A stretch of 64,000 nt of DNA from IMG/VR virus record IMGVR_UViG_3300048925_000129. One strand, 5' to 3'. Positions 5-46,578 of the stretch are shown one piece after another. Under the pieces are notes generated by a model. The model was given only the letters and a program-made list of their open reading frames with translations, was not told where the DNA came from and did no database searches. The translations under genes were made by a program, and so were the position numbers. This DNA is from a virus. The stretch's first letter is position 1, and every line of letters begins with the position of its first letter.

Positions 5-31
5 AAAAAATCCCTCACCGAAGCAAGGGAT
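5..31 (-). terminator. Rho-independent terminator after 52..684
   Basis: Minus strand atccct..aggga hairpin followed by T tract. Confidence 0.6.
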
Positions 32-5515: not shown

Positions 5516-6638
5516 GTACTGTGTCTAATCTAAATTGTAATAAAAGATCTTTCATTCTGTCTATACTAACTTCCTCTGGAAGATCTACTGTAATGTAGTT
5601 TCCTTTGATAATATGAAACCTGTGTTCTGCTTGTTTCATCAAATCATCATAGTTGTACTCTCCTGCTCTAATAGCTCGAAGAAACTCTACGTTATCTGAT
5701 TTCACTTTAAGACCTTTTCCTGTGGAAATGTTGTCAGCCATATCTAAAAGTCTGAAGAGGTGAGACATGTTTTTCAGATCGACACCCTGTCCTGCCTTTT
5801 GATTAGCATTAAATCTCTCCTCATTTCTCTCAGCTTCCCACTCCCAATACTCCTTGTGATCCTTACAATGAACTTGGAAACCATCTAAGTTGTAATACAT
5901 AGTGATTGCCTCGAAATTTGCTGCCAATTCTTTTGGAATAGAAGATAATCTCAGATTGACTGAATTCTCATCTTTAATCAATCCTCTGAACTGGTACTTG
6001 TTTTCGTTGTCAACATATAGACCATGAAGCCCTTTACCTACTGGAAGATCAACCAATCCACATGTATCCAAATTGATGTTCAACTGGTTTGCCCATGTTT
6101 TAAGTGGAATTGAATTATGACCTGAAATAATGTAACAGAAGTCTAAGATTGACTTTCTCTCCTTTGGTTGAGGATTATTCATTTTCTTGTTTAATCCTGT
6201 GGCTTTCTTGATCTGAGAGTCTGCATAACCTAAGATGGTTTTTTCAGTAAGTGTTGTGATCCAAGGTTTTGGGTCATCAAACACATGCATAGAAGGATCT
6301 TTATAGATGATACAGTTTTCTGGAATATCCAAAGCCTCAATCATGTTAGGATTATTCTTTGCCAGGAGTTCCATGAAATTCTGGATCTCAAACCCAACTA
6401 CATCATCTCCACCAATCTTCATATCCTTCTTGTAGTTATTCTTTAAGATCTCGTTAACTGGCTGCTTGTACACAAAGGTGATATCCACATCTGATTGTGG
6501 AGTGTTTGTTCCGTACATATGGCTACCTCTTACGAATGCCAATAGAATTTTAATGTTTCTGGACTTCTCAATCTGAGGAATAAGCTCTCTGAAGTTTTCT
6601 TTCTCTGTTTCAAAATCCTGTGCTTTTAAGTGTGCCAT
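5496..6638 (-). CDS. DNA Pol-beta superfamily nucleotidyltransferase (NrdC.11/YcgL/RlaP-like)
   Basis: RGSHMYGTNTPQSDVD, NPN, KNMSHLFRLL, AIRAG motifs. Confidence 0.85.
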   Translation of the reverse strand: MAHLKAQDFETEKENFRELIPQIEKSRNIKILLAFVRGSHMYGTNTPQSDVDITFVYKQPVNEILKNNYKKDMKIGGDDVVGFEIQNFMELLAKNNPNMIEALDIPENCIIYKDPSMHVFDDPKPWITTLTEKTILGYADSQIKKATGLNKKMNNPQPKERKSILDFCYIISGHNSIPLKTWANQLNINLDTCGLVDLPVGKGLHGLYVDNENKYQFRGLIKDENSVNLRLSSIPKELAANFEAITMYYNLDGFQVHCKDHKEYWEWEAERNEERFNANQKAGQGVDLKNMSHLFRLLDMADNISTGKGLKVKSDNVEFLRAIRAGEYNYDDLMKQAEHRFHIIKGNYITVDLPEEVSIDRMKDLLLQFRLDTVHAGTKF

Positions 6639-14382: not shown

Positions 14383-14468
14383 TGTAGTGTAAGGGGGAAT
14401 CGAACCCCCTGACCTTGCTCCAGTATTAATACTATCATCACAATGCTCTACCACTGAGCTATACACTT
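14383..14468 (-). ncRNA. tRNA-like RNA with enlarged anticodon arm
   Basis: D arm TAGCTCAGTGGTAGAGC, T arm GGGGGTTCGATTCCCCC, acceptor AGTGTA/TACACT. Confidence 0.7.
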
Positions 14469-34340: not shown

Positions 34341-34357
34341 CTCTTATTTATTTTTAG

Positions 34358-34432
34358 TGGTCTAGGTGGGGATTGAACCCACGTCCTTCTGTTTATGAGA
34401 CAGTTGCTTCGAACCAACCGAGCTCCTAGACC
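34358..34432 (-). tRNA. tRNA-Met or Ile2 (CAT)
   Basis: Cloverleaf, loop CT-CAT-AA. Confidence 0.88.
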
Positions 34433-34468
34433 TTTTAACCAGGATTAGCTAAGGAATCTTTTCTTATG

Positions 34469-34540
34469 AACCCCCACCAGGAATCGAACCTGAATCGTCT
34501 GTTTAGAAGACAGATGCTCTATCCGTTGAGCTATGAGGGC
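34469..34540 (-). tRNA. tRNA-Arg (TCT)
   Basis: Cloverleaf, loop CT-TCT-AA. Confidence 0.9.
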
Positions 34541-34751
34541 AAGTTTCGGTTGTTATGCAAAGACAACCTGTAGTTTAGCTGGTTTAATCAAGAAAAACCA
34601 ATTACTCATCTCGGAGGTTTAAAAACTTCACTGTTTTAAAGATGGGGAGAGGTCGTGACTACCAAACCTTATTCCATTCTTACTACCTACATACCTCAGG
34701 GCAGTTAAGAGAAAGTGATTTAACGTTACACTTATACACGGCTCTGCATTG

Positions 34752-34823
34752 TCCCGATACTAGGAATCGAACCTAGATTTCAACTTTATGAGAGTTGTGT
34801 AATAGCCACTATACCATATCGGA
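34752..34823 (-). tRNA. tRNA-Met (CAT), atypical body
   Basis: Cloverleaf, loop CT-CAT-AA. Confidence 0.85.
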
Positions 34824-35014
34824 AGTTGAGGGCGTTAAGTTAATCAGACTAATACCCTCTTTTAATTTCTTGCTTCCATTTTTTAGGGAAAAGGAAGCAC
34901 CCTGCAACCAAACCTAAGTTTTTTGAACACAAAAACTCATAAAGTACCTCGTATGCCCAGTGTTATTTAACCTTACACACCTCACTCCAAGGCTGAACTA
35001 TTTCAAGGGATTTG

Positions 35015-35087
35015 TAGCTCCACCAGGACTCGAACCTGGATCTTCAGCTTATGAGACTGACGAGGTAACCTATTTCTCCATGTAGCA
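35015..35087 (-). tRNA. tRNA-Met (CAT), initiator-like
   Basis: Cloverleaf, 1:72 mismatch. Confidence 0.85.
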
Positions 35088-35093
35088 ATATTA

Positions 35094-35174
35094 GAGCAGA
35101 GTTGTGGAATCGAACCACTAGTCTAGACTACCTTACTCTTCACGACTAAGACCCTGCCTTCGGGTGACTCTGCT
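35094..35174 (-). ncRNA. tRNA-like RNA with acceptor and T arm only
   Basis: AGCAGAGT/ACTCTGCT stem, GTGGTTCGATTCCAC. Confidence 0.55.
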
Positions 35175-35185
35175 TATAAAAACTA

Positions 35186-35434
35186 CTACTCTATAAGAGC
35201 AGTAGTTGTATTGTTTTCTTTAATAATTTTTAATGACCCTTTAAACTGGAGGCTGCCTTTAGTATGACTACTGTCAGGGGTCTCCTTTGTTGTGAAGCCG
35301 ACTCTGGAATCTAGATGATCCACATAGTAAGTTTCACCTTTACACTTCACTACCCAGGCAGGAATGCTCTGGTCCTCGTTGTGTTTCTTATTGAAGTGGA
35401 ATACTATTCTGGAGCTATTACAAATTGTCTCCAT
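35186..35434 (-). CDS. hypothetical protein
   Basis: FHFNK..W.VK..G..Y.V.H. Confidence 0.65.
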   Translation of the reverse strand: METICNSSRIVFHFNKKHNEDQSIPAWVVKCKGETYYVDHLDSRVGFTTKETPDSSHTKGSLQFKGSLKIIKENNTTTALIE

Positions 35435-35684
35435 ACTTCTCTACAAGTTTAGTCACATAAGATTCAGAAATTTCCTTTCTCTTTGTTGTTTGTCTCTCCT
35501 TTCCTTTCAGAACCGAGTAAGCCTGGAAGAGATGTCTAAGCTCATACCTGTTAGTTTCTCTTTCCGAAACTGGATTTGTAGATGTTCTTTCTCCTGTAAA
35601 GGATTGTTTAATCTGAGGCTTAAGAGTTTTCTGTGCCTCTGATAATGTTTTTATTGCTTGTCTGATTGTTTCAAATTTTTTCAT
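35418..35684 (-). CDS. hypothetical protein co-transcribed with Pth2-like gene
   Basis: LRHLFQAYSVLKGK. Confidence 0.65.
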   Translation of the reverse strand: MKKFETIRQAIKTLSEAQKTLKPQIKQSFTGERTSTNPVSERETNRYELRHLFQAYSVLKGKERQTTKRKEISESYVTKLVEKYGDNL

Positions 35685-35691
35685 GATAATT

Positions 35692-36042
35692 TTAATTTAA
35701 TGTTAGATTAAGATTTTTAAATAAAGACTTGTGTTGAGATCTTGAGATTGCTTCGATGGCTACTGCCGTCATTTGGTTTCCTATGTCAGGTTCCAGGAAC
35801 TTATGATACTTGATTTCCAAGTCATCCAGTTTATGGAGTATCCTTTCAATTTTGGATTCCGAAGCTTCAAGACAACACAGGTAGTTACTACCCATCTGCC
35901 ACTGCTTAAATTCATCGTTAAACTTGACTGCAAAATCAGCCAATGCATGTGCACTTTGCACAACTTTGTAACCTGGAGTTAAATCATCTCTGGTGATGAT
36001 TGTCATAAACTCGTTACCTGTCTAAATACCTGTCTTTGTCAT
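35692..36042 (-). CDS. Pth2-like peptidyl-tRNA hydrolase, probable in-frame UAG at codon 7
   Basis: TRDDL.PG..VQSAHA, FLEPDIGNQMTAVA; upstream in-frame ATG 36042, TAG 36022-36024. Confidence 0.75.
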
Positions 36043-36061
36043 AATATAAAACTTTTGGTTG

Positions 36062-36134
36062 TTCTTTCAACGGGATTCGAACCCGTGACACACAGTTTTA
36101 GAGACTGCTGTTCTAACCACTGAACTATGAAAGA
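36062..36134 (-). tRNA. amber suppressor tRNA (CTA)
   Basis: Cloverleaf, anticodon arm GCAGT-CT-CTA-AA-ACTGT. Confidence 0.88.
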
Positions 36135-36138
36135 ATAT

Positions 36139-36203
36139 TGCTTCGTATAAGGACTCGAACCTCACCTGCTAACTGCCGTGCTCCCAATTACACCATCACG
36201 AAA
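36139..36203 (-). ncRNA. tRNA-like RNA with collapsed anticodon arm
   Basis: D arm TGGTGTAATTGGGAGCAC, T arm GAGGTTCGAGTCCTT, 14 nt between them. Confidence 0.6.
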
Positions 36204-36296
36204 AACTTATCTCTCCCACACGGCAATGCAGTTAAAATAAGATTGATATAAGTTAAGGAGGCTTGCCGACCAACCTTATTTGCCATCAATTTTTTG

Positions 36297-36368
36297 TAGT
36301 CCATAGGGGAGTCGAACCCCTCTTCTTAGATCGAAAATCTAATGTCCTAACCGATAGACGAATGGACC
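36297..36368 (-). tRNA. tRNA-Glu (TTC)
   Basis: Cloverleaf, TTAGA-TT-TTC-GA-TCTAA. Confidence 0.9.
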
Positions 36369-36374
36369 AAGTAC

Positions 36375-37194
36375 AAGCTACAGGTCTTGTTAGTTAATAT
36401 TCCACACCGAGTGCCTCAACCAAGGCTTTGGGAATCGAACCCTCTTCGTCTTTTTTCCAAATAAAAATGTTTTAAACTTTGTATTTGCTGTGTGTAGCTT
36501 TATCAAATTACCGTTTGATGTTAAAATTCCAATTTTTAGCTTTGTTTAATTTGCTGTAGGTAATTTTGTCAGATTGCATACTAAACGTGTGTTTGATTAA
36601 AATTCAAGTGTTTGTTTAATTTGCTGTTAGCAATCTTTTCAGAATAGTATGTTTGAGGATTTGAACCCCTTGAACTGTTTATGAGACAATTGTTTTAACC
36701 AAATTTTTTAGATTTGCTGTAACTATTCTTATCAAGTTTCTATTGTTTTTGGACTATTGCTCTACCAACTGAGCTACTGAAATCCTAAGACTCCAGAAGG
36801 GACTCGAACCCTTGACCCACAGTGTTACATTCCTAAATTTGCTGTTAGAAACTTTATCAAAACTCATTTTTTGTTTTATACGTTGTACTAACCACTATAC
36901 TATCTCCCAAATTTTTCTAGATTAACTTTGTTGGGAGAGGAGGAGTCGAACCTCCGTCTACGGCTCTGAATGCATAACTTTGTATTTGCTGTATGAGTTT
37001 TTATATATTCAGGTTACTTGGGGACGATAAAAGGTCCCGTTAAGTTAAGATTTAAGTCATTCTAGGACTTTCCTATACAATTTTACTTCTCACATACAGG
37101 ACCCGAAGTGTAGAGATGTCTGTGCTTTTGCATTCTACAGTTTCCGTTATTTGAATCAATTATAGTTGTGTGTTGTATTTGCTGATAGTAACCT
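36375..37194 (-). ncRNA. array of 7 Y-RNA-like (ACAGCAAA-stem) RNAs
   Basis: Units 36375-36500, 36505-36566, 36571-36636, 36641-36729, 36734-36854, 36859-37001, 37011-37194, each with own 7-9 bp terminal stem and conserved motif. Confidence 0.8.
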
Positions 37195-37206
37195 TATAAT
37201 AACACT

Positions 37207-37265
37207 GCAAAGATATGAAAACTTTTTGAGATATGCAAATCTTGCAGTGTTAAATTTATGTTAAA
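37207..37265 (-). promoter_or_regulatory. promoter for the RNA array
   Basis: TTTGCATAT..TATCTTTGC, TTTAACA x2. Confidence 0.8.
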
Positions 37266-37276
37266 GGATTTTCACC

Positions 37277-38953
37277 TTATAGAACTTCTACTCTTTGAAT
37301 CAGTTCCTGAGACAATGCCTCTCTCACTAATTCGGCTGCTGTTTTAATCTTGGTGTTAGTCAAGAATCCTACAGTGGTAGCAGAGTACCCACTGAAGTAG
37401 AATACGTTTTGAACGTCTCCGTAAGTTTCGAACTTCTCTCCAGTCCCTCTACCATAGTATCCTGACTGTAGGTTCCAAAGAACGATTACGAAGCTATCTA
37501 CATACTCTTTAGAGAACCCAGCTCTTCTCAAAGTTTCCTTTGCAGTTTCAACGTTAGTTTTACCTAATTGGCTTGGGTTAAATTCACTATCAGATATACA
37601 TAGGATTCCCGATGGGAAATCTTGTTCTGAAACTCCACTCTGTTTCAACCTAACGAATAGGTTAATTACTGATTGGAAGTTAGTACCCCCAATGTAAGAA
37701 GAGTGATCATTCTTCCATTTGTCTACTGGAGTTTGACCTTTCCAGGTATGCATCTGAGCATCAGAGTTGAACTCGATCCATGCATTTGCAAACTTACCAG
37801 TTAAGAACTCAGAGAAGTAAAGGGCAAGTGCTTTACCAATATCGTAGCAGCTCATCTTAGTTCCAGTAGCTACACTACTCATTGAACCAGATGTATCTCT
37901 TACAACAATTAGATTAGTCTGTCCAGATTCACCACCTTTTTGAACAAGAGTAGTAAACTGCTTGTTAATGGTTTCAACTTCATTAGGAGTAACTGATCTT
38001 CTAGACTGCTTACCTAGACCTTCGAATAACTCGTGAACGAATCCAGTATACTTCACCTCCTTAGTTTCTGGAGCCTTGATCCACTCTGCATACTTGTCAG
38101 AAAGTTTCTGGTTAAATAGGAACTTACCTTGAACAAGTTTTGAAAGAGCTCTACCATGAACTTTGTTGAAGTCAATTCTATCAAATTGCTTTGTAGAGAT
38201 TAGCTTCTGCCATTCATGAGCTGTACCAGAAGTTTTTAACTTTCTGTACTGCTTGTAAGTAGAACCTGCATTTTCTTTAGTACCAAACACAAGTGAGCAG
38301 ATCCACTTTGCAATCATTGTATCAGCCTGAGCTTCTACAGTTTTACAAGATGATTTAGCCTTGATTTGTGGCAAATACTTCTTAATTAAATCACTGGTGT
38401 TTGAATTTTCTAATCCTGAAAGGATAAGTTCACCAAACTTTTTCCAGTTTAATTTTCTTCCGTTCCAACCGTGATGAACAAGGTCATAAGAAAGCATCGT
38501 GAAGATATCTTTCCATGATCCTGCTGAGATCATCAATCCTACGTTAGCCCAGAAAGTTTTTTCATCCTTGAAGTGTAACCATAAGAATCTCATGATACCT
38601 TCATGTCTTAGCTCACCTCCTTTTTGTGATTCGGCAGTCATAGTACCATCTTGATACATTGTCTGTCTTGAGATCATTCTTAAGAAGATAGAGAAAGCTA
38701 CTGCATCCCACTTATCATCTGCCCATAACATTTCGGCATCTCTGGTGATATCCTGGAAAGATCTTGGTGCTTTGAATTTACCCATAACTCCGAACTGGTC
38801 AACTAATGTTGAACCTGTTGAGGAATATTTTAGGGCTCCGTTCCCTGATAGTGTTTCTGCTCCTTTCTTTAAAGATGCATTAACGAATGCAGATGTTGCT
38901 TGTGTGTTTTTTGGAGTTACCTCGAATAAACTTTTTTGTTTGCTGTCGAACAT
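37277..38953 (-). CDS. TROVE/Ro60-like helical plus vWA protein (DUF2828-like)
   Basis: NGA..YSSTG, GSWKD, C-terminal vWA VRDTSGSM, GGTNF, ISDSEFN, LWNL, SGYS. Confidence 0.8.
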   Translation of the reverse strand: MFDSKQKSLFEVTPKNTQATSAFVNASLKKGAETLSGNGALKYSSTGSTLVDQFGVMGKFKAPRSFQDITRDAEMLWADDKWDAVAFSIFLRMISRQTMYQDGTMTAESQKGGELRHEGIMRFLWLHFKDEKTFWANVGLMISAGSWKDIFTMLSYDLVHHGWNGRKLNWKKFGELILSGLENSNTSDLIKKYLPQIKAKSSCKTVEAQADTMIAKWICSLVFGTKENAGSTYKQYRKLKTSGTAHEWQKLISTKQFDRIDFNKVHGRALSKLVQGKFLFNQKLSDKYAEWIKAPETKEVKYTGFVHELFEGLGKQSRRSVTPNEVETINKQFTTLVQKGGESGQTNLIVVRDTSGSMSSVATGTKMSCYDIGKALALYFSEFLTGKFANAWIEFNSDAQMHTWKGQTPVDKWKNDHSSYIGGTNFQSVINLFVRLKQSGVSEQDFPSGILCISDSEFNPSQLGKTNVETAKETLRRAGFSKEYVDSFVIVLWNLQSGYYGRGTGEKFETYGDVQNVFYFSGYSATTVGFLTNTKIKTAAELVREALSQELIQRVEVL

Positions 38954-38982
38954 CTTATTATGATTTTTGGTTAATTTTTGAT

Positions 38983-39279
38983 TTAGTTTTTACCATTTCC
39001 CTTTTCTGGAAATTTATGAATTCTAATTGGAAGAAATCCTAATTCTTCACATAAGTTTCTTAAAACTTCTAACTTAGAATCATCTCCTTTTTCTATTTTC
39101 CCATCAAACAAAGCTTCAATTACTTCTCCATCTCCTAAGGAAATAAATCCATTTTGAATATGTCTTTCAGCTAGAAGTGAATATGCTTGAATTTTTGCCT
39201 GAAACTTTACCTGCTCTTTGTTAGCTTCTAATTGAATTCTAATTAGTTCTGCTTGTCTATAAAACTCTTGATCTGTCAT
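38983..39279 (-). CDS. hypothetical protein
   Basis: Follows promoter 39298-39357. Confidence 0.5.
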   Translation of the reverse strand: MTDQEFYRQAELIRIQLEANKEQVKFQAKIQAYSLLAERHIQNGFISLGDGEVIEALFDGKIEKGDDSKLEVLRNLCEELGFLPIRIHKFPEKGNGKN

Positions 39280-39498
39280 TTGTTTAATTATTACTTTGCA
39301 AAGATACAAAAAGTTTTCTTAATATGCAAATTTATTTTGTTAAAGTTTTGTTAAAGTTTTTCGATTATAGAGAAGACAATAAAAATTATGTTCTCAACTG
39401 GTATGTTATAAATCCATCTCATAGTATGTAAAATAAAAAATGTTGCTAATATAAGACTTCACATACTAACAACATTCAATCTACCTTCTTGTAGTTTG

Positions 39499-39570
39499 TG
39501 TGATAACGGGACTCGAACCCTGACTACCAATTTCACAGGTTGGCATGCTAACCTTTACATCATTATCACC
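39499..39570 (-). tRNA. tRNA-His (GTG)
   Basis: Cloverleaf, CT-GTG-AA, G-1 encoded. Confidence 0.85.
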
Positions 39571-39627
39571 ATATAAAGTATCTTTTATTTAAGGGGTTGA
39601 AAGATACAAAACTATCCCTAATTTTAT

Positions 39628-40020
39628 TTAGTAGTTCACTACTCTTACTGGTTTACCAAGATTTTTCATGAGGTCTATCATATTTTTTGTTCCTCTACTC
39701 TTGCCATCCCAAAAAGCTATAAGTACATCTCCTACTTCGGACATCTCTTCATTCCTAATTGGACCAGCAGCATTCCCATACATTTTCCAGTCGGCTGGCA
39801 TAGGAATAACATTGTGATTACTCTCAGCAGCATAAAGCTCTCCAAGTCCATCTGCTCCAAAGACATTAATACCATCTGATGTGGTAAAAGTCTTGGTTCC
39901 CGTGGAGCATCTTCCTGAAACTATTTCGATGTCTCTATGATTCCTAAGGAAATTATCACATTTTGTTTTAACGAGACGATAATCATTCAGATCTCTGCCT
40001 CCTGCTATTATGACTTTCAT
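39628..40020 (-). CDS. SLOG/DUF2493 (YspA-like) protein
   Basis: IIAGGR, GAD, AGPIRN.EM, AFWDGKSRGT. Confidence 0.88.
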   Translation of the reverse strand: MKVIIAGGRDLNDYRLVKTKCDNFLRNHRDIEIVSGRCSTGTKTFTTSDGINVFGADGLGELYAAESNHNVIPMPADWKMYGNAAGPIRNEEMSEVGDVLIAFWDGKSRGTKNMIDLMKNLGKPVRVVNY

Positions 40021-40442
40021 TAGGCTTCAGCAATTGCTTGCTTGATCTCATCAGCTTTATTAATACCTTTACACTCCTTGTTGATCATACCAAATAGTTT
40101 ACCTTCGTGGATGCCTGGATTATCTTCTTTAGTTTGTTTAACCAAAGACACTAATTCAGAATAGGTTAAGGCCTGAGGTAAGTACGACTCAAGAACTTTT
40201 AATTCTGATTCTTCCTTAACAGCAAGATCTATTCTTTTAGAAAGAGTGTAGGCATCAATAGATTGATTCCTTTTCTTAATTTCCCTAGAGATAAGTTTCG
40301 TAACTTCATCTTCAGTTAAATCTCTTCTTAAAGCTATTTTCTCGTTGTCTACTACACTTATTAAAAGTGACAGGGTTGTTTTTGCTACTATATCTTTTGC
40401 CTTTAAAGCTTTTACGTAGTCTTGTCTGATCTTTGATTCCAT
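40020..40442 (-). CDS. GatB/YqeY domain protein
   Basis: ALKAKD, EIKKR..SI..Y..R.DL..KE..E...L..YLP. Confidence 0.88.
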   Translation of the reverse strand: MESKIRQDYVKALKAKDIVAKTTLSLLISVVDNEKIALRRDLTEDEVTKLISREIKKRNQSIDAYTLSKRIDLAVKEESELKVLESYLPQALTYSELVSLVKQTKEDNPGIHEGKLFGMINKECKGINKADEIKQAIAEA

Positions 40443-40469
40443 TTTACTTTTGTTTTAATTATTGATTAG

Positions 40470-40540
40470 TGCAGGTAGGGAGAATCGAACTCCCGACTAA
40501 ACATTGGAAGTGTCCCGTGATACCACTTCACCACACCTGC
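40470..40540 (-). tRNA. tRNA-Gly (TCC), reconstituted copy
   Basis: Cloverleaf, CT-TCC-AA. Confidence 0.85.
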
Positions 40541-40958
40541 CTATTCTTTCCTGATAATGTAAGTCCCTATGACAGTTGGAACATAAAACCTCACATTTCT
40601 CTATTTCTTTTAATGCTCTAGATTTAGAACCACTCTTAAACAGAGCTCCAACTTCAGTATCCTTCTCGTCTGGATTAATATGGTGAAAATCTAAGACCCA
40701 CCATCTATCCTCTGGACATCTATTACATTTTAAATTTTTCTTTATTTCGAAAAATTCTTCCATAGAAGTTTGTCTATAAGCTTTAGATTTAGAAATATAT
40801 TTAGCTTTGTTAGCTTCATAATGTTTCTTTCTATATTCTTTCTGACATTCTCTACATTGCCACTGTAGAATTGTTTTTGTTTTCAATTTTTTAGTAGCAA
40901 AAAACTCTTCTGTCTCTGGTAATTCTTTTTTACAAGAACCACATATCTTCGTACACAT
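40497..40958 (-). mobile_element. HNH homing endonuclease
   Basis: CGSC, CREC, LDFHH, EIEKCEVLCSNCH. Confidence 0.88.
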
Positions 40959-41024
40959 ATTTATTAATTTATACAAAGATACAAAAAAGGTATCGAACTT
41001 CCAAACACATAAAATTAATTATTA

Positions 41025-41065
41025 GGCTTGGAAGGCTAGAGTATTAACCACTATACGATACCTGC
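41025..41065 (-). pseudogene. orphaned 5' half of tRNA-Gly (TCC)
   Basis: GCAGGTA-TCGTATAGTGGTTAATAC-TCTAGC-CTTCCAA-GC. Confidence 0.8.
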
Positions 41066-41160
41066 AATTATAATAGACCATCATACTCTCACTAATGTGA
41101 TTCGTGCACCTGATATACCTTGGGTATATAAGTAGATAGTTTTAGGGGCAACTATTATTG

Positions 41161-41234
41161 TCTCCAGTATAGGATTTGAACCTATGACAACTTCCTTATC
41201 AGAGAAGTGCTCTACCAGACTGAGCTAACTGGAG
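41161..41234 (-). tRNA. tRNA-Ile (GAT)
   Basis: Cloverleaf, CT-GAT-AA. Confidence 0.9.
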
Positions 41235-42463: not shown

Positions 42464-42521
42464 TTTACAAATTTAAGAAACTTTTTTGACATGTGCAAGT
42501 TTTTAACAAACTTTAACATTG

Positions 42522-42593
42522 TAGACCTACTAGGATTCGAACCTAGATACCCTGAGTCAAAGTCAGGTGTACTAACCGTTGTACGATAGGTCT
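42522..42593 (-). tRNA. tRNA-Gln (TTG)
   Basis: Cloverleaf. Confidence 0.92.
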
Positions 42594-42596
42594 GTT

Positions 42597-42670
42597 TGGA
42601 GCCCAGAACAGGATTCGAACCTGTGTACCTAGTTTTGCAGACTAGTGTCTAACCACTCGACCACCTGGGC
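42597..42670 (-). tRNA. tRNA-Cys (GCA)
   Basis: Cloverleaf, CCA encoded. Confidence 0.92.
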
Positions 42671-42676
42671 AGCTTG

Positions 42677-42748
42677 AGCCTCTATCAGGAATCGAACCCG
42701 AATCTCAAGATTACAAATCATGTATAATAGCCGTTATACTACAGAGGC
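42677..42748 (-). tRNA. tRNA-Thr (TGT)
   Basis: Cloverleaf. Confidence 0.9.
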
Positions 42749-42751
42749 AAA

Positions 42752-42793
42752 TAAAAAATCCCTTGCAAAGTCGGTTGAGGATTCACAAGGGAT
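42752..42793 (-). terminator. attenuator-type terminator before tRNA-Thr
   Basis: ATCCCTTG..CAAGGGAT plus T6. Confidence 0.8.
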
Positions 42794-42825
42794 AGAAATT
42801 TATAAAAAATAAATTTGTGTATTGT

Positions 42826-42915
42826 CTATTCATAAATGACATCAGACAAAATCATCCCTGTTGAGTGCCCCTGGCAGCCAATAGTTATCTCGATATGTTG
42901 TCTAGTTGTTGTCAT
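42826..42915 (-). CDS. leader peptide B, MTTTRQHIEITIGCQGHSTGMILSDVIYE
   Basis: Lies between promoter (42935-43000) and terminator; residues 1-17 match downstream tRNAs. Confidence 0.75.
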   Translation of the reverse strand: MTTTRQHIEITIGCQGHSTGMILSDVIYE

Positions 42916-42934: not shown

Positions 42935-43000
42935 GCAAATATACAAAATGTTTTTGACATATGCAAATTTCTAAAAGAAATTATTAGTTAAAGTTTTGTT
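42935..43000 (-). promoter_or_regulatory. promoter of tRNA operon B
   Basis: TTTGCATAT..TATATTTGC. Confidence 0.8.
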
Positions 43001-43236: not shown

Positions 43237-43320
43237 AGGAAGACAGAGAGCACGATTCCCAGACCCTGAGGTCCCATTTGTTTAGCAAACAAAGTCTATA
43301 CCCCGATAGATTTAACTTCC
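43237..43320 (-). tRNA. tRNA-Ser (GCT)
   Basis: Long variable arm, TT-GCT-AA, atypical T loop. Confidence 0.75.
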
Positions 43321-43328
43321 ATAATATG

Positions 43329-43856: not shown

Positions 43857-44369
43857 TTATTTTAGCAAGTACTGCTCCCAATCTTTAGGAATTGTACCTA
43901 GATGTTTTATAAACATCAAGTAATGTGGTCTTTTAGGATTTGGATGTTCCTTACCCCACTCTTCTATTGTTAAGTCATTTTTTTCCGAGTTACACGGTTT
44001 ACATGCAGTAACTAAGTTGTCCCAAGTGTCTTTTCCACCTTTCGATTTAGGAATAACGTGGTCGATAGTCATTGCTCTTATTTCGTCTTCTCCACAATAC
44101 ACACAAGTGTAGTTATCTCTTTTGAAAACATTGTCCCTGTTACAAGGAACTTTGTGGATATCCAGGTTAATGAACCTTGGAACCCTGATAACTGATGGTC
44201 TGAAGATCTCTAAATCTGGATTAACCAAACCAAACTTCTCTGGGTGTTCATGCAGGATGTCTGCATTACCCTTAAGAGAAACTACATAAGCTCTTTCAGA
44301 TGTCACAATTTGTCTGGGTAAGTACTGTGAATCTAACACCAAGCACTTACGAAAATCTACTTTTTTCAT
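43857..44369 (-). CDS. HNH endonuclease (McrA-like)
   Basis: RDNYTCVYCG, TIDHVIPKSKGG..TWDNLV.AC..CN; start moved to 44369. Confidence 0.9.
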   Translation of the reverse strand: MKKVDFRKCLVLDSQYLPRQIVTSERAYVVSLKGNADILHEHPEKFGLVNPDLEIFRPSVIRVPRFINLDIHKVPCNRDNVFKRDNYTCVYCGEDEIRAMTIDHVIPKSKGGKDTWDNLVTACKPCNSEKNDLTIEEWGKEHPNPKRPHYLMFIKHLGTIPKDWEQYLLK

Positions 44370-44389
44370 TGTTACACTTTTTTGATTAG

Positions 44390-44470
44390 TACTGATAGTA
44401 GGACTCGAACCTACACCCCTTTCGGGAACAGTTTCTAAGACTGCCGTGTCTACCATTCCACCATACCAGC
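44390..44470 (-). tRNA. tRNA-Leu (TAG)
   Basis: Cloverleaf, long variable arm. Confidence 0.92.
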
Positions 44471-45935: not shown

Positions 45936-46013
45936 TGGTGGGTCCACTGGGAATCGAACCCAGTCCTACAGTTTTTCAGACTATCGTGCAGACCTTAATT
46001 ACACCTTAGACCC
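45936..46013 (-). tRNA. tRNA-Phe (GAA)
   Basis: Cloverleaf, CCA encoded. Confidence 0.88.
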
Positions 46014-46223: not shown

Positions 46224-46230
46224 ATGTTTG

Positions 46231-46306
46231 CCGTGATAGAGGGATTCGAACCCTCGTTTTTGAAGAGTGACAGTCTAAATCCCCATCCAATGGAGCATAT
46301 ACCACG
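46231..46306 (-). tRNA. tRNA-Asp (GTC), atypical D arm
   Basis: CT-GTC-AC loop, T arm intact. Confidence 0.75.
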
Positions 46307-46314
46307 AGTTATAT

Positions 46315-46352
46315 AAAAATAAAAATCCCTACGAATTTTACTAAGTAGGGAT
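46315..46352 (-). terminator. attenuator-type terminator before tRNA-Asp
   Basis: ATCCCTAC..GTAGGGAT plus T tract. Confidence 0.8.
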
Positions 46353-46385
46353 ATTAATCAAAAAAACTAAAACTATGAACCAAAA

Positions 46386-46502
46386 TCATGTTTGTGTGCT
46401 TTTACTTAATCCTACTATTGTAGAGCTATTATCCCATAACTTATCTGCCCCCAGTACACTAGGGTTAAAGGCAAACGAATAAAAGTTATAAGAGTTTTTC
46501 AT
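46386..46502 (-). CDS. leader peptide A, MKNSYNFYSFAFNPSVLGADKLWDNSSTIVGLSKSTQT
   Basis: Lies between promoter (46520-46578) and terminator; residues 2-26 match downstream tRNAs. Confidence 0.75.
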   Translation of the reverse strand: MKNSYNFYSFAFNPSVLGADKLWDNSSTIVGLSKSTQT

Positions 46503-46519
46503 TGTATATTTTTTACTTT

Positions 46520-46578
46520 GCAAAGATATGAAATTAATTTCACATATGCAAATTTAATTGGTTAAATTTTTGTTAAAT
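46520..46578 (-). promoter_or_regulatory. promoter of tRNA operon A
   Basis: TTTGCATAT..TATCTTTGC, TTTAAC x2. Confidence 0.8.

Follow-up and report, generated by a model that had tools for sequence, protein, structure and literature searches.

A candidate leader-peptide attenuator whose codons match the tRNA genes that follow it in a phage tRNA array

In a 64,000-nucleotide stretch of phage DNA (IMG/VR virus record IMGVR_UViG_3300048925_000129; the whole of this stretch is referred to below as 'the window'), a short open reading frame that ends 77 nucleotides ahead of a tRNA-Thr gene draws nearly all of its early codons from the amino acids served by the tRNA genes that lie behind it, and is followed by a hairpin and U-run of the kind that form an intrinsic terminator. 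We consider it likely, with a probability of roughly 0.7, that this arrangement (termed 'unit B'; Table 1) is a ribosome-mediated, or leader-peptide, transcription attenuator that controls phage tRNA genes. The computed support for an attenuator consists of its layout, a match of composition that is conserved among relatives, the recurrence of the same arrangement with a different partition of tRNAs, covariation within the terminator stem, and a plausible antiterminator that also covaries; from these features we infer that the reading frame is translated, that the hairpin terminates transcription, in which direction the switch would be thrown, and what its biological trigger may be. The first-pass annotation of this DNA had proposed that the reading frame ('leader B') acts as a sensor and works together with a terminator ahead of tRNA genes, and that proposal was well supported by the composition of the leader, by two relatives, by an independent replicate in Cellulophaga phages, and by negative controls.

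Table 1. Window coordinates of unit B, its sister unit A, and the tRNA genes behind leader B.
Feature	Coordinates	Strand	Basis
Sister unit A: leader ORF 46502-46386 (protein P0003, TGA stop); terminator 46351-46322	46322..46502	-	composition, folding
Unit-B promoter, Bacteroidota type: TTTG 42967-42964, 20-nt spacer, TAnnTTTG 42943-42936	42936..42967	-	sequence reading
Leader ORF B (protein P0002), 29 codons + TAG	42826..42915	-	translation
Sensing block, codons 1-20 (up to 22 in the window)	42856..42915	-	composition tests, relatives
G+C-rich hairpin within the ORF, codons 12-19	42861..42881	-	MFE folds of all three phages
Antiterminator 5' strand (candidate), AGGGAUG onward, codons 20-22	42851..42859	-	truncated-transcript folds, pair counts
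Antiterminator 3' strand (candidate), overlapping the base of the terminator 5' arm	42788..42796	-	pair counts
Intrinsic terminator (predicted): 12-pair hairpin 42793-42757, ~-13.9 kcal/mol; U-run 42756-42749	42749..42793	-	folding
tRNA-Thr(TGT), tRNA-Cys(GCA), tRNA-Gln(TTG), directly behind the unit-B terminator	42521..42748	-	ARAGORN, Rfam
Rest of the leader-B tRNA set: Ile(GAT), Gly(TCC), His(GTG), Glu(TTC), CTA suppressor, three CAT tRNAs, Arg(TCT)	34357..41234	-	ARAGORN, Rfam

The window has a low G+C content (0.31-0.38) and derives from a phage of approximately 159 kb that is related to the genus Lightbulbvirus and is found in root and wastewater metagenomes. Its portal protein corresponds to phrog_6547, and its major capsid protein is 36% identical to those of the Cellulophaga phages phi4:1 and phi17:2 and 40% identical to that of the gut phage csAssE-Sib. 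Matching sequence was found in 24 public runs, mostly of root and wastewater DNA; the four that were compared (X6, X8, X10 and X19, the last of which is probably DNA) were compared as contigs. Approximately 25 tRNA genes, called with ARAGORN and Rfam, span positions 46305-34357 on the minus strand. Three tRNAs that were missed by ARAGORN were recovered by reading of anticodon loops: tRNA-Phe(GAA) (45939-46013, minus strand), which is called by Rfam only; tRNA-Asp(GTC) (~46228-46305, minus strand), which is called by neither program in the window and is called in a related phage contig, L001; and a candidate tRNA-Ser(GCT). The last of these (43237-43322 on the minus strand of the window, 5034-5120 in L001, and 6450-6535 in a second relative, L006) possesses an acceptor stem, D arm, anticodon stem-loop and variable arm, together with an atypical T arm. 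It is missed by ARAGORN and, at the gathering score, by Rfam; the three phages all retain it, their acceptor stems showing compensatory changes, and it would account for both the AGT and AGC codons of the leader of unit A ('leader A').

An HNH endonuclease gene (43857-44456, minus strand) lies within the tRNA block behind leader A, where its reading frame overlaps tRNA-Leu(TAG) (44389-44470); the gene is followed by a strong hairpin and U-run (~43807), looks like the insertion of a homing endonuclease, and may split the transcription unit. A 558-aa protein encoded within the tRNA region (37277-38953, minus strand) matches phrog_850 (RNA-binding), and in csAssE-Sib a Ro sixty-related gene is found immediately behind a tRNA-Tyr and tRNA-Lys pair. 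A weak tRNA-Ile(GAT) call (84 nt, 38 bits; 14384-14467, minus strand), distant from the array, may correspond to a degenerate or intron-bearing copy. The array also includes a suppressor-type tRNA with a CTA anticodon (36061-36134, minus strand; labelled Pyl by ARAGORN), of which L001 has one as well. Reading of TAG as a sense codon was considered and rejected for the window, where it produced no gain over a TGA control and hence no sign of recoding; any recoded genes must therefore lie elsewhere in the genome.

The correspondence between leader and tRNA content was quantified by dividing the tRNAs by position, into those located between leaders A and B (set A: Asp, Trp, Asn, Phe, Tyr, Pro, Lys, Val, Ala, Leu and Ser) and those located after leader B (set B: Thr, Cys, Gln, Ile, Gly, His, Glu, Met and Arg). 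Unit A precedes tRNAs for Asp, Trp, Asn, Phe, Tyr, Pro, Lys, Val, Ala, Leu (two) and Ser (two), and it is the recovery of tRNA-Asp(GTC) and tRNA-Phe(GAA) that allows set A to be seen as complete. Each in-set residue of a peptide was scored +1 and each out-of-set residue -2, and the top-scoring segment was taken. For leader B this segment comprised residues 1-22, with 21 of the 22 in set B and all nine members represented; for leader A it spanned residues 2-27, where 25 of 26 belong to set A and none of the eleven members is missing. Within the sensing block itself, leader B contains Met, Thr, Arg, Gln, His, Ile, Glu, Gly and Cys (all nine) and one Ser. Among 200,000 random peptides drawn from the amino-acid frequencies of the phage, none scored as high as leader B (p < 5e-6) and 170 scored as high as leader A. 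When every small ORF in all six frames of the whole window was ranked (976 ORFs of 15-60 codons), each leader took first place for its own set, leader B scoring 19 as compared to 10 for the runner-up, and cross-scores against the opposite set were low (3-4; 4 for leader B). An unbiased scan, in which every small ORF was compared with the next k tRNAs for every value of k, returned leader B at p 4e-8 with k = 11, corresponding to all of the called downstream tRNAs.

The codons that produce this match in leader B are scattered: most of the amino acids are represented by one to three codons, and the sole run consists of three Thr codons. The first-pass annotation had listed ATC, ATA and ATT, CAA and CAG, CAT and CAC, GGC and GGG, AGA, and GAG within codons 1-17, and all of these were found on the minus strand. 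Its emphasis on the presence of all Ile, both Gln and both His codons was not sustained by the relatives, in which leader B is without ATC, CAG and CAC (L006) or without ATC and CAC (L001). This loss of synonymous completeness indicates that constraint acts on each tRNA or amino acid and not on each synonymous codon. ATA and an ATY codon both occur in leader B of the window, L006 and L001, which fits the presence of two different Ile tRNAs, one of which would be a separate Ile2 tRNA; a cloverleaf comparison of the three CAT tRNAs, among them the Ile2 candidate at 34357-34432, made with respect to initiator, elongator Met and Ile2 identities, found no textbook initiator features in any of them. 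Enrichment of rare codons in the leaders was marginal (p ~0.04-0.05) and is due in part to the G+C-rich hairpin at codons 12-19, which accounts for the rare codons GGC, TGC and GGG in leader B.

The two leaders end differently, and do so in all three related phages: leader A with TGA (46386-46388) and leader B with TAG (42826-42828), so that a different release factor would be required for each. Among the 69 long ORFs of the window, 57 are closed by TAA. The possibility that the TAG stop of leader B senses the CTA suppressor tRNA was also rejected, since read-through of that stop would cross the terminator only in the window and not in L006 or L001, and since unit 1 of phage phi4:1 (described below) ends in TAG and has no tRNA with a CTA anticodon in its array, as judged by ARAGORN and Rfam.

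The arrangement was found again, with unrelated leader sequences, in the cultured Cellulophaga phage phi4:1 (NC_021788.1, locus L010), in which 23 tRNAs are organized into three blocks; in front of each block lie a promoter, then a short ORF, and then a hairpin with a U-run. Leader 1 (L010 1566-1634), which has no annotation in the database record, draws 11 of 11 consecutive residues from Pro, Glu, Gln, His, Leu and Arg, which are exactly the amino acids of the seven tRNAs behind it. Leader 2, with a GTG start at L010 2526 inside gp075, draws 22 of 24 from Ala, Lys, Ile, Gly, Met, Asp, Thr, Val and Arg, and leader 3 (L010 4272-4370, unannotated) draws 13 of 14 from Tyr, Ser, Asn, Trp, Phe and Cys; the corresponding random-peptide probabilities are 1e-5, 1.5e-4 and < 5e-6. 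A chance origin of the composition match is excluded by the five independent leaders of the two lineages, with p between 8.5e-4 and < 5e-6 for each. Leader 3 further predicted the presence of Asn and Cys among the tRNAs of its block, in which two are nameless in the GenBank record; their anticodons were found to read GTT and GCA. The Arg tRNAs of phi4:1 reside in separate blocks, with CGT in leader 1 ahead of Arg(ACG) and AGA in leader 2 ahead of Arg(TCT), and CGN comprises only 10% of Arg codons in the phi4:1 genes that were sampled. Phage phi17:2 encodes the same three leader peptides. The phage of the window employs two leaders, with an 11 + 9 partition and with sequences unrelated to those of phi4:1; because both the tRNA partition and the leader sequences differ between the two lineages, the composition of the leaders can be said to track tRNA content.

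Across nine of nine units, the distance from the stop codon of the short ORF to the first tRNA falls between 57 and 79 nucleotides. Within phi4:1, the annotated start of gp075 (L010 2490-2609; NC_021788.1 87989-88108) overlaps the promoter, and the in-frame GTG at L010 2526 is the likely start of the leader. A further small gene, gp076 (L010 4618-4719), located between tRNA-Tyr and tRNA-Ser, displays no match to the tRNA sets. In units 1 and 3 (L010 1548-1566 and 4254-4272) the start codon is found just 4 nt past the -7 box, so that the leader mRNAs may be leaderless or nearly so. As negative controls, three unrelated phages that carry arrays of 16-18 tRNAs (Bacillus phage vB_BcoS-136, Vibrio phage pv27 and Pseudomonas phage vB_PpuM-Amme-3) were put through the same scan; in none of them did an ORF reach a probability under 3e-4, or cover a complete set of several tRNAs with a segment longer than four residues. 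No convincing leaders were found upstream of tRNAs in the capsid relatives from IMG/VR that have 0-4 tRNAs, or in csAssE-Sib.

Closer relatives of the phage permitted an examination of how the leaders change over shorter distances. Both leaders are present in two related IMG/VR contigs, L006/L007 (160 kb; neighbouring genes up to 99% identical) and L001/L004 (157 kb; an adjacent 253-aa protein is 48% identical). Leader B has 29 codons, the same frame and the same TAG stop in the window, L006 and L001, and the non-coding spacer downstream of it has indels. Between the window and L001, 11 of the 29 residues of leader B differ and its composition is maintained: codons 1-20 carry two synonymous changes and six replacements, all five of the replacements at in-set positions remain within set B, and the sixth (Ser to Pro) occurs at the lone out-of-set position. 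Loss of the sole Arg codon, at codon 5, is made good at codon 10, and all nine amino acids are still represented. Synonymous changes in leader B are found at codons 8, 11, 15, 25 and 27, and its internal Met codon is present in the window only, being absent from L006 and L001. Codons 2-25 of leader A display nine synonymous changes as compared to two in-set replacements (2-4 replacement changes), and a variant at 46452 in the public runs is a synonymous Leu change in the same leader.

Exact-pattern scans of IMG/VR, conducted with a conserved 17-mer and with the terminator loop, returned only the two relatives and three chance matches (L002, L003 and L005), and a metagenome scan with a back-translated leader-B pattern gave 0 matches. 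A blastn search of the unit-B region against cultured phages returned tRNA matches only, a tblastn search with the adjacent 253-aa protein returned no match, and a homologue search with the 73-aa upstream protein returned only 2 clusters.

The promoter of leader B, which also registers in a sigma-70-like scan (42967-42938), sits within a longer box that is common to the promoter of leader A (copies of a shared 14-nt box lie at minus-strand positions 46555, 42970 and 3452), and is kept in L001 and L006; an A-rich stretch of approximately 20 nt separates its TAnnTTTG box from the start codon of leader B. Within the reading frame, the G+C-rich hairpin retains eight of eight pairs in the relatives, with one G-U to G-C change, and is a candidate pause or timing hairpin; 3' of the frame, the predicted fold continues with a small hairpin around the stop codon and then an A/U hairpin. 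In the predicted terminator, 97% of stem cells are paired when the three phages are compared, two changes being compensatory and three affecting one side only; the U-run abuts tRNA-Thr, ending at the first base of that gene. Because polymerases that start at the unit-B promoter meet the terminator before any of the tRNA genes, the terminator is expected to be conditional or leaky.

The first-pass annotation had noted that the terminators of units A and B share an ATCCCT/AGGGAT stem base. A common TCCCT/AGGGA base was indeed found in both, but a third hairpin and U-run (window 7-30, minus strand) has the same base, and the motif is therefore better regarded as a general terminator habit of the phage than as a property of its attenuators. 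Further along the array, an additional promoter (42520-42464) is located behind the tRNA-Thr, -Cys and -Gln genes, the more distant tRNA genes of the set alternate with protein genes, at least one promoter beyond that of unit B, and hairpin and U-run sites, and strong sites of the latter type are found inside the two blocks at ~39440 and ~36205 as well as at ~43807. As a consequence of the sites at ~39440 and ~36205 and of the internal promoter of block B, the Glu, Arg and Met tRNAs may bypass the leader-B terminator, and leader B would directly gate only the Thr, Cys and Gln tRNAs, plus, probably, those for Ile, Gly and His.

An antiterminator located directly after the sensing block had also been proposed in the first-pass annotation, on the basis of an 11-nt stretch (42864-42854, codons 18-21) that is complementary to the 5' arm of the terminator. 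That stretch forms six contiguous pairs (AGGGAU/AUCCCU), a 2x2 mismatch and three additional pairs, or seven pairs in a slightly shifted register. Its position and complementarity were corroborated; its pairing energy, in contrast, did not exceed that of shuffled leaders in unit B (p 0.39). Across the three phages, the helix formed by 42859-42851 and 42796-42788 is paired in 92.6% of cells, with three pairs changed on both sides, as compared to 44-59% for controls in which the strands were slid. In L001, a change at the opening base of the terminator stem breaks the terminator pair and keeps the antiterminator pair. The best upstream partner of the terminator 5' arm was found just past the sensing block in every unit. 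When pairing energies were tested against dinucleotide shuffles of the leader, the resulting p values were 0.24 for unit A and 0.39 for unit B of the window, 0.10 and 0.08 for unit B of L001 and L006, respectively, and 0.022, 0.10 and 0.002 for units 1, 2 and 3 of phi4:1; a Fisher combination over the five independent units (window A and B; phi4:1 1-3) gave p ~0.001, the window's own signal being weak. In folding tests in which transcripts were cut before the 3' arm and the footprint of the ribosome was masked, the terminator 5' arm of unit B was predicted to be captured with the A site at codons 2-14 and to be freed once the ribosome covers the segment. With the ribosome placed at the stop codon, the antiterminator was absent in unit B of the window and in unit 1 of phi4:1, and re-formed in several other units, so that thermodynamics alone does not settle the switch. 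Supported by its position and by covariation in the relatives only, the antiterminator of unit B is plausible.

According to the mechanism that we propose, transcription would begin at the unit-B promoter and the 29-codon leader would be translated, its first 20-22 codons calling every amino acid, and where distinguishable every isoacceptor, for which a tRNA gene lies downstream. When decoding is fast, the ribosome would come to cover 42859-42851, allowing the hairpin at 42793-42757 to form and the U-run to halt RNA polymerase ahead of tRNA-Thr. When any of the codons is read slowly, because the corresponding tRNA is scarce, cleaved or uncharged, the ribosome would stall within the sensing block and leave 42859-42851 free to pair with the base of the terminator 5' arm; the antiterminated polymerase would then continue into tRNA-Thr, -Cys and -Gln and probably beyond. 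The output would be a form of feedback that resembles an OR gate and supplies phage tRNAs on demand, the possible trigger being host tRNA cleavage, tRNA decay, or a host supply out of step with the codon demand of the phage. Given the small number of codons per amino acid, such a device should respond best to the severe loss of a single tRNA species, and its sensitivity is uncertain.

While the composition match and its conservation call for translation-linked selection, they leave the output of the device unfixed, and it is conceivable, although unlikely, that the mini-ORF is translated and reports on decoding with an outcome other than read-through upon stalling: a switch of reversed polarity, an effect on the processing or stability of the tRNA precursor (in which case the hairpin would be a processing or stability element), or Rho-type termination. 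The weakness of the antiterminator signal in the window and its reappearance, in several units, when the ribosome is placed on the stop codon are compatible with such outcomes, as is the location in L001 of a tRNA-Met between the promoter and leader B, which makes the leader RNA part of a processed precursor in that phage. Against them stand the canonical U-run that follows the hairpin in nine of nine units and the placement of a complement to the 5' arm just behind the sensing block in all units, significant in two of the three phi4:1 units, which is the geometry of stall-dependent antitermination.

A second alternative, to which we assign a very low probability, is that the region acts as an untranslated and structured 5' leader of the tRNA precursor (a pause site, or an element bound by an RNase or other protein), with the reading frame as a by-product. 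The RNA of unit B does fold into a structure slightly stabler than its shuffles (z -2.0 in the window and -3.0 in L001), and its central G+C-rich hairpin is invariant; nevertheless, the conservation of frame, length and stop codon, the synonymous changes, and the confinement of replacements to the tRNA set all argue for a translated sequence, the Rfam matches in the window are limited to tRNAs, and RNA structure cannot explain a composition that tracks tRNA identities in two lineages. That leader B is instead an ordinary small phage gene or chance ORF beside a leaky or constitutive terminator, its composition alike by coincidence, is the least probable reading of all, because the abundance of small ORFs in the window, the strong conservation of the leader-A peptide (as a functional peptide would show) and the occurrence of the terminator stem motif at an unrelated site are outweighed by the statistics of five leaders, the low cross-scores, the successful prediction of tRNA-Cys, the negative results in unrelated phages, and a divergence of leader B that preserves composition in a manner not typical of a functional peptide.

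The attenuator reading places unit B beside several well-studied regulatory systems. Multivalent attenuators are familiar from enterobacterial operons, such as the ilvGMEDA leader with its Ile, Leu and Val codons and the thr leader with its Thr and Ile codons, and related leaders include trpL, hisL, leuL and pheL. Unit B resembles these amino-acid operon attenuators in having a short ORF (here predicted to be translated) between promoter and genes, the codons of multiple amino acids as the proposed signal, a predicted intrinsic terminator after the ORF, and a candidate for a competing upstream pairing that overlaps the distal part of the ORF. It differs from them in that it would control tRNA genes and not biosynthetic enzymes, in that a single phage leader covers nine to eleven amino acids, with one to five dispersed codons for each in place of the classical tandem runs, and in that it belongs to a phage with Bacteroidota-type promoters in which two leaders jointly cover all twenty amino acids. 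By virtue of its target genes and its lack of comparable codon runs, unit B falls outside of the classical operon-leader family as defined by trpL, hisL, ilvL and thrL.

In Escherichia coli, attenuation of an aminoacyl-tRNA synthetase operon is exemplified by pheST, whose leader (pheM) contains a run of Phe codons. The parallel with unit B would be that leader-peptide attenuation acts on the translation apparatus, such that the speed of decoding feeds back upon decoding capacity; however, pheST senses one amino acid and controls a protein gene, whereas unit B would control tRNAs themselves. T-box riboswitches likewise read the status of tRNA, choose between terminator and antiterminator, and lie upstream of translation-related genes. 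They bind one uncharged tRNA directly, by means of a specifier codon and the T-box sequence, and do so without translation. Unlike a T-box, unit B contains an ORF with many codons, and a scan of the whole window with Rfam found tRNAs only, with no leader or T-box family reaching the gathering score. In the full-text literature that was searched, no description of tRNA genes under leader-peptide control, whether in phages or in bacteria, was found.

What tRNA genes do for phages, and by what means they are expressed, has long been asked, and codon usage, host range and the evasion of tRNA-cleaving defences are among the answers that have been suggested. If the reading offered here is correct, the codons of each leader mirror the tRNA genes behind it because the phage measures decoding and makes tRNAs on demand; leader-peptide attenuation would be extended to a new class of target, and to a new design in which many amino acids are monitored at once and two leaders suffice for all twenty. 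A more ambitious version of the idea, which we put forward tentatively and at less than even odds, is that the two leaders perform an isoacceptor-resolved roll-call, in which the loss of any single tRNA species switches on the matching replacement block; such loss might arise through host anticodon nucleases, through phage-induced decay of host tRNAs, or in a host that is without the species. Were this to be true, the tRNA array would represent an inducible counter-defence or a self-tuning supply, and not a constitutive patch for codon usage. The device is present, unannotated, in the cultured phages phi4:1 and phi17:2, and is thus accessible to experiments at the bench. Its leaders can aid in the annotation of unusual phage tRNAs, as illustrated by the tRNA-Cys of phi4:1, and the module could act as a compact sensor of tRNA availability.
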